A program made the position numbers and the translations under genes. From a phage, in the sequence record PZ445437.1: DNA of 64,000 bases; one strand, given 5' to 3'. Under the pieces are notes generated by a model, which ran no database searches, was not told where the DNA came from, and worked only from the letters and a program-made list of their open reading frames with translations. This document shows positions 34,598-64,000 of the stretch, in pieces; within the stretch, counting starts at the first letter, position 1; every line of letters begins with the position of its first letter.

Positions 34598-34739
34598 CGT
34601 TTTGTGAAAAAATTTTTAAAAAGTTTTGGGGAATTCTAGGGCAGGGAGGGGAAATCAAAGGATAGGATAATATATTATAAAGGGTAGAAACTAAATGATG
34701 TCTAGAGAGGCCTGGAAAGGCCTAGATACCAAAAAGCCC

Positions 34740-34763
34740 CAACCTTTCGGCTAGGGCTAAGAA
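34740..34763 (-). terminator. rho-independent terminator (hairpin AGCCCTAGCCGAAAGGTTGGGGCT followed by TTTTT on the minus strand)
   Basis: Inverted repeat with GAAA loop and U-tract immediately 3' of the 34766 ORF. Confidence 0.6.
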
Positions 34764-34765
34764 TG

Positions 34766-35239
34766 TTATTTGATTTGTTTAGCAGACCAAATGCGGTCTT
34801 TAATAATTTTTTGGATGTCTTCAACATACTCAAGAGAGTGAGCATGTGGGTTATCTTTGAAACTATAAGCACGAGCTAGCTTTTGGCCTTCAGTTTTGAT
34901 TACTAAAAGCTCTTTAAGGATAGCTTCATATTTGGAGATAATTCCTTTAACGATATTTTTCTCTTGCGTGACTTTAGGATCTGCTTTAGGAGCAGGTTTA
35001 CCTGAAGCCTTTGCAAAAGCAGCTCCAGTAGCAACTAAACTTTTCCAAGCCATACTAACTGCATTCCCTGTAAATCCTTCGGCTTTCATATCACGAGCAA
35101 ATTGGAATCGTGATTCATCGGAAGCATCTTTATAGGAATATTTACCCGCGGCAATGGCTGCTTTTGCGACAGCTTGAATTTCGGTGCTAGATGCTTCATT
35201 TAACACCGCTTCATTTAAAAATTGAGCATATGATTTCAT
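34766..35239 (-). CDS. internal-protein-like protein with divergent capsid-targeting sequence
   Basis: 157 aa; N-terminus MKSYAQFLNEA resembles the MKTYQEFIAEA motif; Ala/Lys-rich. Confidence 0.5.
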   Translation of the reverse strand: MKSYAQFLNEAVLNEASSTEIQAVAKAAIAAGKYSYKDASDESRFQFARDMKAEGFTGNAVSMAWKSLVATGAAFAKASGKPAPKADPKVTQEKNIVKGIISKYEAILKELLVIKTEGQKLARAYSFKDNPHAHSLEYVEDIQKIIKDRIWSAKQIK

Positions 35240-35288
35240 CTTATTTCCTGTTTTAATTTGTGGTTTTAATATACTTATTTATACTAAA

Positions 35289-35312
35289 AAGCCCCAACCT
35301 TTCGGCTGGGGC
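35289..35312 (-). terminator. rho-independent terminator (near-identical copy of the 34740 hairpin)
   Basis: AGCCCCAGCCGAAAGGTTGGGGCT followed by TTTTT on the minus strand. Confidence 0.6.
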
Positions 35313-35620
35313 TAAGCCTTGCGGCAACCTTGTCGGGGTTCCACCTGCTAAGGCAAGTGTTTGTACGAAACGCCGGGATTCGAACCCGGTTATCAAGCAG
35401 TTGACGCTACTCAATATTTTTAAAAGGCCATATCTCGACCATATCCGAACGTTCCGTCAAAAACGCTACTCGGCTTACGGCAAAGATATTTCCTCGAATC
35501 GATAATTCGGTGCGCCGTTTCTGCTGTGATATAAGGGGACATTAACAAAACATAAAGATTTATTAATGCCAGTCCTTAAACAGGGAACATCAGTCCGACG
35601 ACTTACCGGTAGCGACCCGG
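35313..35620 (-). ncRNA. candidate small stable RNA(s) with a tRNA-like T-arm
   Basis: Non-coding 300-nt stretch between a minus-strand ORF and a terminator; contains CCGGGTTCGAATCCCGG on the minus strand; no complete cloverleaf found. Confidence 0.35.
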
Positions 35621-35624
35621 TTTC

Positions 35625-35975
35625 TTAATATTCTTTTAAAGCATCAATCTGTTCACGGCGTTTACGCCATAAATCAATTGCTTCATACACAGATTCAGCA
35701 TTTCGAATTAGCCGGCATTTATGTAAAGACTTATGATTTTGATATTGTGTAGATAATGGAATTGTATCTAAAAGGTCTTTACGATCAAAGTATTCGTAAC
35801 CATCTAAACCAAATGAACGATTTTTGAGAAATTGCCAATGGCCAAATTCATTTTCAACATAAACATAATCTGCATGCTGATAAAGTAAATTAATTACACG
35901 TTCAGAAATAGCAGTATCATTATGATTAAAATAGAATGTTAAATCATGAACTACTAAATAAACATTACCTTTCAT
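35625..35975 (-). CDS. hypothetical protein
   Basis: 116 aa ORF immediately downstream of tRNA-Arg. Confidence 0.4.
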   Translation of the reverse strand: MKGNVYLVVHDLTFYFNHNDTAISERVINLLYQHADYVYVENEFGHWQFLKNRSFGLDGYEYFDRKDLLDTIPLSTQYQNHKSLHKCRLIRNAESVYEAIDLWRKRREQIDALKEY

Positions 35976-35993: not shown

Positions 35994-36069
35994 TGGTCGA
36001 GGCAGTAGGGATCGAACCTACGACCTAGGACTTAGAAGGTCCTTGCTCTTCCTTCTGAGCTATGCCCCG
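35994..36069 (-). tRNA. tRNA-Arg (anticodon UCU)
   Basis: Cloverleaf folded by hand: acceptor CGGGGCA/TGCCTCG, anticodon loop CUUCUAA, T-arm GGTTCGATCC, encoded CCA. Confidence 0.8.
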
Positions 36070-36073
36070 TAAT

Positions 36074-36149
36074 TGGGGTGACCGATGGGAGTCGAACCCA
36101 TGACTACGAGAATCACAATCTCGAGTTCTACCAACTGAACTACGGCCAC
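36074..36149 (-). tRNA. tRNA-His (anticodon GUG)
   Basis: Acceptor GTGGCCG/CGGTCAC, anticodon loop TTGTGAT, discriminator C, encoded CCA. Confidence 0.65.
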
Positions 36150-36263
36150 ATTAATACCTACTCCAACAATCAAGATGTCTTCACACGAAATTAAGAGAAG
36201 AGTGATCAGTTCAACCCCTATAATCGCGTCAAGTAGATATTAATGTGACAGTTGTCACAAATT

Positions 36264-36338
36264 TGGCGGACGTGATAGGATTCGAACCTATAACCAATCG
36301 CTTAACAGGCGATCGCTCTGCCATTGAGCTACACATCC
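36264..36338 (-). tRNA. tRNA-Asn (anticodon GUU)
   Basis: Acceptor GGATGTG/CACGTCC, D-arm GCTC/GAGC, anticodon loop CTGTTAA, encoded CCA. Confidence 0.7.
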
Positions 36339-36342
36339 AAAT

Positions 36343-36429
36343 TGGTGGGGAGTGATGGAGTCGAACCACCCGAGTCGCAATGACAATGGATTTACAGTCC
36401 ACACCGCTACCTCTACGGGATAACTCCCC
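36343..36429 (-). tRNA. tRNA-Tyr (anticodon GUA), class II with long variable arm
   Basis: Acceptor GGGGAGT/ACTCCCC, anticodon loop CTGTAAA, 15-nt variable arm, encoded CCA. Confidence 0.65.
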
Positions 36430-36438
36430 AAATTAATT

Positions 36439-36513
36439 TGGTGGCCCTGGGTGGAATTGAACCACCATCTGGCGATTATGAGTCGCTTGCTTGAACCTTC
36501 CAGCTACAGGGCC
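36439..36513 (-). tRNA. tRNA with anticodon CAU (Ile via lysidine, as in T4, or Met)
   Basis: Acceptor GGCCCTG/CAGGGCC, anticodon loop CTCATAA, encoded CCA. Confidence 0.7.
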
Positions 36514-36514
36514 T

Positions 36515-36590
36515 TGGTGCTGATTGACGGAATCGAACCGCCGACCTTCTCATTACAAGTGAGTTGCTCTACCTACTGAGCTAAATCAGC
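36515..36590 (-). tRNA. tRNA-Thr (anticodon UGU)
   Basis: Acceptor GCTGATT/AATCAGC, anticodon loop CTTGTAA, encoded CCA. Confidence 0.8.
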
Positions 36591-36595
36591 AAAAC

Positions 36596-36685
36596 TGGCG
36601 GAGGCGATAGGATTTGAACCTATGAGTCGCCGGAGCGACTGCCGGTTTTCAAGACCGGTGCATTAAACCACTCTGCCACGCCTCC
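36596..36685 (-). tRNA. tRNA-Ser (anticodon UGA), class II
   Basis: Acceptor GGAGGCG/CGCCTCC, anticodon stem-loop CCGGT-CTTGAAA-ACCGG, long variable arm, encoded CCA. Confidence 0.8.
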
Positions 36686-36691
36686 AAATAT

Positions 36692-37300
36692 TTATATATT
36701 GTTAATTTGATTTAGAATTCTTTTTGCTTGAGTATGACTTACGCCAATATGCTTAGCATATTTAGATAATTCACCACGCTTAGAAAAATCATATAATTTA
36801 GAAATTTCTATTCTTCTTTTTCTTTCATCCACAGAAACTTTTGCTTCGTTTGCTTTTGCTATTTTACGTTTAGCTTCTTGAGAATGAGTTTTACCAGCAA
36901 AGCCATTCTTCATTAATCCATTTGAAGACCATCCTTTTAATTTTCCGTTAGAATGTGCCTTTTTAACACCCAATGAAATTAATTCGCGTTGCTGGTCTGT
37001 CATAGGATAATTATTTATATGATCCCATCCACCTTCACCGCCAAGTTTTAAATTATACACATCTGGTCTATTTAAAAACTCTTCTGTAACAATATTTTTC
37101 TCGGCTTCAAGCATAGATTCTTTATCATCAAAATACTCTAATATTTCTTTAGAAAAATTTTCTATACCATACTTATCTTGGGCTCTTTTTAATAATTTAC
37201 CAGAACCCATATATCCATCATCTAAATTTTCGGTAGAATGCACACCAATATAAATTTTATTATTAATTTTATTTGTTATTTTATAAAGATAAAAATGCAT
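36692..37300 (-). CDS. segB: GIY-YIG homing endonuclease SegB-like, inside the tRNA cluster
   Basis: ORF 36692..37342; MHFYLYKITNKINNKIYIGVH GIY-YIG-type motif plus NUMOD-like C-terminus; start at the internal Met is preferred because the longer ORF abuts tRNA-Gly. Confidence 0.65.
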   Translation of the reverse strand: MHFYLYKITNKINNKIYIGVHSTENLDDGYMGSGKLLKRAQDKYGIENFSKEILEYFDDKESMLEAEKNIVTEEFLNRPDVYNLKLGGEGGWDHINNYPMTDQQRELISLGVKKAHSNGKLKGWSSNGLMKNGFAGKTHSQEAKRKIAKANEAKVSVDERKRRIEISKLYDFSKRGELSKYAKHIGVSHTQAKRILNQINNI

Positions 37301-37346
37301 ATCAGTCCCTAATAAAGAACTGAGCGTCTCACGACGAGTCATAAAT

Positions 37347-37420
<74 letters not shown>

Positions 37421-37425
37421 AAATT

Positions 37426-37512
37426 TGGTGCGAGAAGTGGGACTCGAACCCACAAGGAAATCATTCCGCAGCATTTTAAGTGCTGTGCCTTTACCAATTT
37501 GACCATTCTCGC
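37426..37512 (-). tRNA. tRNA-Leu (anticodon UAA), class II
   Basis: Acceptor GCGAGAA/TTCTCGC, anticodon stem-loop CAGCA-CTTAAAA-TGCTG, encoded CCA; 1 nt from tRNA-Gln. Confidence 0.8.
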
Positions 37513-37513
37513 G

Positions 37514-37586
37514 CTGGGAATAAAGGACTCGAACCTTTGCATCCTGGAATCAAAATCCAGTGCCTTACCAACTTGGCTAATTCCCA
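37514..37586 (-). tRNA. tRNA-Gln (anticodon UUG)
   Basis: Acceptor TGGGAAT/ATTCCCA, anticodon stem-loop CTGGA-TTTTGAT-TCCAG; CCA not encoded. Confidence 0.8.

Positions 37587-60863: not shown

Positions 60864-64000
<3,137 letters not shown>

Follow-up and report, generated by a model that had tools for sequence, protein, structure and literature searches.

The window analysed here, a 64,000-nucleotide stretch of phage DNA, comes from a T4-like phage of the genus Tequatrovirus, and the region of interest is found on its minus strand at the end of a tRNA cluster. The cluster itself (35994..37586) comprises ten tRNA genes, all recovered by both ARAGORN and Rfam, and two T4 late-promoter-type motifs (TATAAATA, at 36696..36689 and 37019..37012 on the minus strand) fall within the same interval. 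Downstream of the tRNA-Arg gene come, in order and on the same strand as the tRNAs, a 116-aa open reading frame (ORF; 35625..35975), the species 2 RNA gene rnaD (35508..35628, approximately 119–121 nt), a 5-nt spacer reading AAUUA (35503..35507), the species 1 RNA gene rnaC (35364..35502, 139 nt), a conserved 50-nt trailer (35314..35363), and an intrinsic terminator (35285..35313). The earlier note on this DNA, made from the sequence alone, had described a strong minus-strand terminator at this position, and a terminator-like hairpin is indeed present there (35313..35290; 10 pairs, seven of them G-C, with a 4-nt loop), followed by TTTTT; it is the sole strong terminator 3′ of the cluster. A 157-aa ORF lies beyond. 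The order tRNA-Arg, 116-aa ORF, rnaD, rnaC, 157-aa ORF is common to phages RB68 and BW-1 and the window, and comparison of both flanking ORFs against Pfam and PHROGs gave no functional assignment, the 116-aa ORF corresponding to phrog_3355.

T4 makes two small stable RNAs, rnaD and rnaC, whose discovery dates to the 1970s; species 1 RNA was also sequenced in that decade. The earlier note had suggested that the stretch may encode counterparts of the T4 species 1 and 2 RNAs, and this was borne out; judged by alignment, it is the direct homolog of T4 rnaD (species 2) and rnaC (species 1), both of which are annotated in relatives. The finding is therefore real but already known from T4. The 351 bases from 35280 to 35630 match 805 phage records, almost all of them Tequatrovirus, and are 100% identical in Shigella phages ESh33 and ESH35 and in Escherichia phage vB_Eco_EL. 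Features for rnaC or rnaD are annotated under the query match in RB5, RB68, RB27, GiZh, Kha5h, and T4: the T4 record (NC_000866.4) places rnaC at 70908–71046 and rnaD at 71053–71171, the RB5 record carries both rnaD (as “species II RNA”) and rnaC, the RB68 record also carries both, and the GiZh record describes rnaC as “small stable RNA; species 1 RNA”. We carried feature coordinates to the minus strand of the window by alignment to the T4, RB5, RB68, and GiZh records, with the intervening spacer placed by alignment to the T4, RB5, and RB68 annotations; the RNA ends given for the window phage are thus putative ones, assigned by homology to the T4 and RB68 annotations.

Sequence identity is high for both RNAs. 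The window rnaC is 100% identical to the annotated RB68 rnaC and 97.8% identical to T4 rnaC over 139 nt, and the corresponding values for rnaD are 99.2% (RB68) and 86.0% (T4). Covariance models built for the two RNAs each returned a sole match in the window, namely rnaC for model R1 (158.5 bits, E 2e-40) and rnaD for model R2 (149 bits, E 6e-35). Comparison of predicted folding with that of shuffled sequences gave z-scores of −3.81 (minus strand) and −0.38 (plus strand) for rnaC, and of −2.44 (minus strand) and +0.46 (plus strand) for rnaD; the minus strand alone folds better than shuffles, which supports the assignment of both RNAs to this strand. When 185,579 bacterial and archaeal genomes were searched with the cores of rnaC and rnaD, nothing matched, and hence no cellular or prophage homolog was recovered at that stringency; rnaC and rnaD are restricted to T4-like phages.

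Annotation of this locus across the approximately 800 related records is uneven, as most either carry no annotation here or carry spurious “hypothetical protein” calls, and many deposited genomes have two to three such calls under the match. One may postulate on this basis that the region codes for small proteins, and mechanical ORFs can indeed be drawn: the plus strand has one of 81 aa (35260–35505), and the minus strand has two, of 53 and 42 aa. The earlier note had seen no convincing ORF here, and closer inspection agrees with it: every one of the six frames is interrupted, with 3–8 stops per frame in a 346-nt region of the window and 2–11 per frame in the same region of five relatives. The note had also named a conserved protein-coding frame, revealed by comparison, as evidence that would speak against an RNA; we found no reading frame conserved among the window and the five relatives. 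Close relatives differ by single-base insertions or deletions within both RNAs (three in rnaD of T4, one in rnaC of L010), the longest open frame shifts in both frame and length from phage to phage, substitutions track base-pairing and not codons, and curated records carry ncRNAs instead of coding sequences. We therefore regard a protein-coding role for the region as very improbable.

The sequences available for rnaC permitted a comparative assessment of its structure. We assembled 17 distinct sequences that are 57–99% identical to the window and derive from Tequatrovirus, Karamvirus (ZX13, KaAlpha), Kanagawavirus (PEi20), Winklervirus (Kc304), and unclassified relatives; conservation of rnaC thus extends over at least four named genera, with a length of 138–141 nt throughout and an identity of 82–87% between Tequatrovirus, Karamvirus, and Winklervirus. 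The earlier note had proposed a covariation analysis against related phages, and this analysis yielded supported structures for rnaC and, as described below, for rnaD. The consensus fold of rnaC contains 46 pairs, and 98.1% of cells in the alignment of 17 sequences are able to pair. Double changes are present in 19 of the 46 pairs, compared with 3–6 when the partners are slid by 1–3 columns, and none of 500 shuffles reached the observed pairing values.

In this fold the two ends of rnaC are joined by a terminal stem in which positions 2–8 (35495..35501) pair with positions 131–137 (35366..35372), interrupted mid-stem by two invariant U·U mismatches; column 4/139 of this stem is A-U in 10 sequences and G-C in seven. 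Positions 9–78 form a long irregular hairpin of 70 nt, most of whose sequence is replaced in KaAlpha and PEi20 with the pairing retained, and this is followed by an A/U-rich linker of 8 nt and a 10-bp hairpin at positions 87–112. The last element before the 3′ strand of the terminal stem is a T-arm-like hairpin (positions 114–130; 35373..35389) with a 5-bp stem and the 7-nt loop UUCGAAU. The third pair of its stem covaries (G-C in 12 sequences, U-A in four, A-U in one). The loop reads UUCGAAU in most sequences, UGCAUUC in Kc304, and UGCAUGC in MY742; the canonical loop sequence is accordingly not essential. The terminal stem (2–8/131–137), with its two U·U mismatches, adjoins the T arm (114–130), and the long irregular hairpin and the 10-bp hairpin stand in place of D and anticodon arms. 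Our structural model thus describes rnaC as tRNA-like solely at its ends, where a 7-position acceptor-like stem adjoins a 5-bp T stem. The genome continues past the 3′ end of rnaC as GUA|CAA, so a CCA terminus is not templated.

This T arm is the near-perfect T stem-loop reported in the earlier note, recovered here as the minus-strand 17-mer CCGGGTTCGAATCCCGG at 35389..35373. The window contains 10 copies of the T-loop motif GGTTCRANTCC, where chance would give 0.2; eight copies lie in called tRNAs, one lies at 35376–35386, and the one at 63087–63097, which lacks a stem, was set aside as a chance match. As the earlier note had also stated, no complete cloverleaf is found, with neither ARAGORN nor Rfam at gathering score detecting a tRNA here. 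The fold of rnaC accounts for this, since the partner of the acceptor-like 3′ strand is the 5′ end of rnaC, approximately 130 nt upstream, leaving no cloverleaf that could fold locally.

A second possibility raised in the earlier note, a decayed tRNA gene, fared less well; on this view the T arm would be what is left of the gene and the remainder would be drifting spacer. Some features appear compatible with it: the T stem-loop looks canonical, the adjoining 3′ strand is acceptor-like, the whole lies within a tRNA cluster, and the stretch aligns weakly to tRNA-Sec (16.4 bits, E 2.8, against a gathering score of 47), which was its best match in an Rfam search at E ≤ 10. Decay is difficult to reconcile, however, with a length that remains constant at 138–141 nt across genera and with compensatory changes in helices that have no counterpart in tRNA, and both tRNA detectors are silent here and at seven related loci. 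We also considered an internal 8-bp “acceptor” (positions 46–53 with 131–138), which can be drawn in the single sequence of the window and gives a cloverleaf-like 3′ domain; it was rejected on comparison, as column 49/139 cannot pair in 7 of the 17 sequences while the partner at the 5′ end covaries there (A-U in 10, G-C in seven). Ongoing decay of a tRNA gene is consequently a most implausible account of this conserved RNA, and it is a separate matter that rnaC may possibly have descended from a tRNA in the distant past.

The results of automated detection are consistent with this assessment. ARAGORN identified the ten tRNAs at 35994–37586 but no tRNA in the rnaD/rnaC stretch and no tmRNA in the window, and in seven related loci it never called rnaC or rnaD. 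The Rfam scan proposed in the earlier note named no family: with Rfam 15 at gathering score only the ten upstream tRNAs were returned, rnaC and rnaD matched nothing, and no Rfam family for either RNA appears to exist. Matches below threshold, among them isrK, tRNA-Sec, mascRNA (14.2 bits against a threshold of 42.5, at E ≤ 10), and others, were rejected because all of them rest on either the T hairpin or the terminator. The element is not a member of the tRNA, tmRNA, or any Rfam family, and it is not a protein gene.

A further feature of rnaC concerns its two hairpin tips. The long hairpin carries at its tip the sequence UUGACG (positions 43–48; 35460..35455), which is fully complementary to CGUCAA in the loop of the 10-bp hairpin (positions 97–102; 35406..35401), and both hexamers are invariant in 31 of 31 rnaC sequences, even where the closing stems have been replaced in KaAlpha and PEi20. 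A loop–loop contact between them is possible and would be a reasonable inference from this complementarity, with the caveat that covariation cannot support a contact in which both partners are invariant.

The structure of rnaD was estimated from 21 distinct sequences and is of a different kind. Its conserved core begins at 35624 (GAAACCGGG...) and its 3′ end reads ...GGCGCACC(G); the TAA stop codon of the 116-aa ORF overlaps its 5′ end and abuts the core. The 21 sequences support a five-helix scaffold with compensatory changes, in which three nested long-range helices are arranged around the invariant junctions GGACUGA, UCCCUG, AUCAC, and GAAA. A hairpin at the 5′ end has an invariant 7-nt loop and a closing pair that is A-U in 17 sequences and G-C in three, and a long-range stem pairs GUCGUCG with CGGCG.CAC, the latter immediately ahead of the 3′ end. 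Alignment of the 21 sequences also supports a 4-bp helix that joins alignment columns 40–44 with 109–112 (pair 40/112 is U-A in 14 sequences and A-U in six); the third helix of the minimum-free-energy structure, which would instead pair 36–43 with 107–113, breaks in 6–7 of the 21 sequences and was discarded. The remaining helices are a UAAG/CUUA helix and an apical hairpin, the latter occurring in at least three unrelated sequence versions (a T4 type, a JS98 type, and a type shared by the natural variant L009 and BW-1). Relatives differ at the 3′ end (CCG, CCA, CAG, or CCT), indicating that conservation does not extend to the CCA of T4 rnaD. The molecule does not resemble a tRNA, and any tRNA-like chemistry at the 3′ ends of rnaC or rnaD would be hypothetical.

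There is also evidence that rnaD is part of a wider family found in the tRNA clusters of T4-like phages. The rnaD model gave weak full-length matches (13–20 bits) in the gaps of Karamvirus-type tRNA clusters, and these share the motifs AAG(U/C)CGUC, (A/U)UCCCUG, and GGCGCAAC. Their third helix shows compensation, in that UGUU/AGCA becomes UGAAU/AUUCA or UUUAAU/AUUAAA. Three contigs (L028–L030) additionally carry a 68-nt miniature version of rnaD between tRNA-Arg and rnaD itself. When the distant members are included, double changes are observed in 17 of 33 rnaD pairs, a value that should be interpreted cautiously given that this alignment was fitted to the covariance model and leans toward the structure of that model.

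The position of both RNAs points to a shared transcript with the tRNAs. In T4, transcription is described as traversing the entire tRNA cluster and ending behind the gene for species I RNA, with a primary transcript of approximately 1.75 kb that is the precursor of eight tRNAs and the species I and II RNAs (PMC2330249). In the window, rnaC likewise lies on the strand of the tRNA cluster, downstream of the cluster, after rnaD, and before the operon terminator. The arrangement differs at rnaD: the 116-aa ORF, which separates tRNA-Arg from rnaD in the window, RB68, and BW-1, is missing from T4 and RB5, where rnaD starts 1 nt after tRNA-Arg. Direct adjacency to tRNA-Arg is the T4 arrangement and not necessarily a defining one, as the annotated rnaD of RB68 shares the variant seen in the window; nevertheless, with an ORF and not a tRNA immediately upstream, formation of the rnaD 5′ end may differ from that in T4. 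At the other end of the transcript, the 50-nt trailer (CAAACACUUGCC...GCAAGGCUU) is near-identical in T4, RB5, and GiZh and is also present in the Dhakavirus phages JS98 and VR5, both of which lack rnaC; its predicted fold is no better than that of shuffles (z = −1.35).

In T4, RNAC and RNAD were classed as late RNAs by RNA-seq, with confirmation reported by Northern blot assay (PMC9697503), and the oligonucleotide given for the T4 RNAC Northern-probe template in that study matches nt 1–58 of the window rnaC exactly. In cells infected by the window phage, rnaC is predicted to accumulate as a stable RNA of approximately 140 nt.

How the two RNAs might be released can be proposed from their contexts. 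In other genera rnaC is spaced like a tRNA: it lies between tRNA-Trp and tRNA-Gly in ZX13 and KaAlpha, with 5-nt spacers on either side, and 5 nt after tRNA-Met in MY742, and the spacer between rnaD and rnaC in the window has the same length. In Providencia phage PSTCR6, rnaD is found between tRNA-Arg and tRNA-Ile. The 7+5 stack of acceptor and T stems is recognised by RNase P and by enzymes that process tRNA 3′ ends. We propose that rnaD and rnaC would be read as the tail of a transcript that includes the ten tRNAs and the 116-aa ORF, that RNase P may cut at the 5′ end of rnaC, and that exonucleases may then shorten both RNAs from the 3′ side as far as their stable terminal helices. The tRNA-like spacing in other genera and the acceptor/T-arm stack of rnaC both lend support to this route, and excision from the tRNA-cluster transcript by tRNA-processing enzymes would fit the features of the locus. 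Species 1 RNA is cleaved by RNase III in vitro and has a dimeric precursor, p2Sp1. Taken as a whole, it is very likely that the locus encodes rnaD, rnaC, their trailer, and terminator as the tail of the tRNA transcript, here with the 116-aa ORF included, and that the two RNAs are excised from it as stable structured RNAs.

What these RNAs do is less clear. Their biological roles were described as unknown in a 2010 review (PMC3014915), the function of RNAC and RNAD was said to be yet unknown in an omics study of 2022 (PMC9697503), and a paper of 2025 likewise gives the function as unknown (PMC12685909). Several of our results argue for functional molecules over debris: the stems covary around loops and junctions that do not change, rnaC retains 82–87% identity between genera, each RNA is retained separately in different genera, rnaD has paralogs, and neither RNA was found in the bacterial and archaeal genomes scanned.

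An alternative scenario is that the RNAs are stable but have no function of their own, being either leftovers of processing or cis elements that protect the 3′ end of the transcript or organise its processing. Lying 3′-terminally, just ahead of the terminator, they would suit a protective role, rnaC is missing from JS98, VR5, and PSTCR6, and deletions of the T4 tRNA region are viable. Furthermore, neither a phenotype nor a partner has been reported in approximately 50 years (PMC3014915, PMC9697503). Against it stand the invariance of loops and junctions across genera in the presence of covarying stems, the 82–87% identity of rnaC between Tequatrovirus, Karamvirus, and Winklervirus, and the retention of each RNA alone in varied tRNA-cluster contexts and not just at the ends of operons. 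The rnaD-like paralogs, together with a convergent adaptive mutation in rnaD, also weigh against this scenario, which we accordingly consider unlikely.

This mutation was reported in phage BW-1, whose local gene order is that of the window: a single convergent SNP in rnaD, T to C at position 164264, arose in three of three independently evolved lines adapted to the host ECOR34 (PMC12685909). We mapped it onto the rnaD structure on the assumption that the coordinates are those of OR125554.1, with which both the identity of the base and the stated rnaC–rnaD range agree. The change is A to G in the RNA and converts a C·A mismatch in the apical hairpin to a C-G pair; the local energy of the hairpin drops from −7.6 to −13.8 kcal/mol, and the sequence found in two natural variants (L009 and L030) is recreated. 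This repair suggests that some hosts demand an intact apical hairpin in rnaD for best performance of the phage.

Our best guess, which we hold with low confidence, is that rnaC and rnaD are accessory RNAs that act on a host or phage factor binding RNA or tRNA, with a benefit that depends on the host. A more specific proposal would make them host-range or counter-defence RNAs, with rnaC serving as a tRNA-shaped decoy or adaptor and rnaD as an invariant scaffold bearing an exchangeable apical hairpin; the BW-1 mutation, which repaired this hairpin in the three ECOR34-adapted lines, points this way, yet the proposal is speculative and its chances are slim. Were it to hold, rnaC would engage a factor that recognises the stacked acceptor and T arms, for instance an enzyme of processing or modification or a host nuclease that targets tRNAs. 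Under the same proposal, the integrity of the rnaD apical hairpin would set fitness on particular hosts.

As a discovery the locus is of little weight, since both RNAs have long been known in T4 and are annotated in several close relatives. The analysis adds folds for both RNAs that are backed by covariation, a delimitation of the tRNA mimicry of rnaC to its acceptor/T-arm end, a wider rnaD-like family, and a structural reading of the sole adaptive mutation reported in either RNA. The alignments, structures, and covariance models could be used to mend the annotation of existing records and to supply the missing Rfam families, and the results sharpen the 50-year-old question of the role of the species 1 and 2 RNAs.

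Compared with T4, the window shows minor differences. The T4 rnaC has the same length and fold and likewise closes the series of RNAs in the tRNA region, with trailer and terminator following; the window copy differs from it by three substitutions, two of which change G·U to A-U in the 10-bp hairpin while one lies in the long hairpin. The T4 rnaD has the same scaffold and lies directly upstream of rnaC with a 5–6-nt spacer, as in the window. The closest annotated counterpart of the window rnaD is RB68_s002; the window copy has a different allele of the apical hairpin from that of T4, and its 3′ end reads ...CACCG where that of T4 reads ...CACCA. After the terminator the window carries a 157-aa ORF cassette that T4 lacks.

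A further comparison is that of rnaC with tRNA (RF00005), which it resembles in its 7-position terminal stem with a contiguous 5-bp stem and UUCGAAU loop, in its location within a tRNA cluster, and in its tRNA-like spacing in other genera. It is unlike a tRNA in that it lacks a D arm, an anticodon arm, and a templated CCA, contains two U·U mismatches in the terminal stem, is 139 nt long, and falls below the thresholds of both tRNA detectors. An acceptor/T-arm module mounted on a non-tRNA body, as in rnaC, is also found in the tRNA-like domain of tmRNA, in the bacterial Y RNA YrlA, and in mascRNA; rnaC differs from tmRNA in lacking a tag reading frame, and ARAGORN did not call it as one.

Divergent RNAs resembling rnaD, the species 2 RNA, were found in the gaps of tRNA clusters of Karamvirus-type phages, lying at 161-264 in L008, 167-297 in L015 (Enterobacter phage MY742), 2877-3007 in L024, 4559-4660 in L025, 6428-6529 in L018 and 5433-5563 in L042, where L-numbers designate the related phage loci compared. 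A 68-nt miniature version lies between tRNA-Arg and rnaD in three further contigs (L028-L030). These RNAs are annotated in none of these loci; they share the motifs AAG(U/C)CGUC, UCCCUG and GGCGCAAC and their helices are compensated, and the overall pattern suggests that they are part of a wider family.

A convergent host-adaptation SNP described in Escherichia phage BW-1 (PMC12685909) falls within rnaD. It lies at position 965 of the BW-1 locus (L033, OR125554.1; record position 164264), which by alignment is equivalent to approximately 35548 in the window. No clear structural effect of this SNP was reported in that study; when mapped onto the rnaD structure, the change repairs the apical hairpin by re-forming a C-G pair (CACAG/CUAUG to CACAG/CUGUG), as seen in natural variants.

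Sequences that may be related to tRNAs occur next to rnaC, the species 1 RNA, in several relatives. Immediately after rnaC, Edwardsiella phage PEi20 (L013, ~746-880) and MY742 (~674-800) have in common a conserved stretch of ~130 nt (CAATTTATGATTTGTGTGGTGAAATTTGGTAGACACGACTGGAATAGC...GTGTAGGTTCGAGCCC), which was not called by ARAGORN; it resembles a tRNA with an interruption following its anticodon region, or else a structured RNA of another kind. Just upstream of rnaC in Kosakonia phage Kc304 (L014, ~455-528), a tRNA-like sequence, likewise without an ARAGORN call, has a CCA end, a GAA anticodon-like loop and a non-canonical T loop (GGTTGGATCGTTACCAAC), and may be a degenerate tRNA-Phe. Outside the tRNA region of the window, an additional match to the T-loop motif (GGTTCAAATCC) occurs at 63087-63097 (-); it lacks a flanking stem, and we judged it a chance match.

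The tRNA cluster itself varies between phages. A 216-aa ORF (36692-37342, -) with a GIY-YIG-like N-terminus (YLYKITNKINNKIYIGV) lies between tRNA-Gly and tRNA-Ser, at the position occupied in T4 and RB5 by tRNA-Pro, which is absent from the window; RB68 carries at this position an annotated 'truncated SegB-like protein'. The ORF is probably a homing endonuclease that has displaced a tRNA gene. The 114-nt gap between tRNA-His and tRNA-Asn (36150-36263, -) received no call from ARAGORN, Rfam (gathering score) or our rnaC and rnaD covariance models, and both tRNA-His and this spacer are missing in RB5 and T4.

A 116-aa ORF (35625-35975, -; phrog_3355, a PHROG without assigned function), whose sole domain match was a sub-threshold hit to DUF2654, occupies the precise boundary between tRNA-Arg and the core of rnaD as an insertion, which converts the tRNA-Arg/rnaD junction into an mRNA/rnaD junction. 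It is found in RB68 and BW-1, whereas T4 and RB5 lack it.

Downstream, two terminator copies form a 36-bp direct repeat of 94% identity (34726-34761 and 35281-35316), and between them lies a 555-bp cassette containing a late-promoter motif (TATAAATA, 35283..35276) and a 157-aa ORF (34766-35239; phrog_2280, likewise without assigned function). This cassette looks to have been gained or lost via recombination between the terminator copies; T4 and RB5 do not have it, and in these phages the sequence beyond the second terminator copy joins directly.
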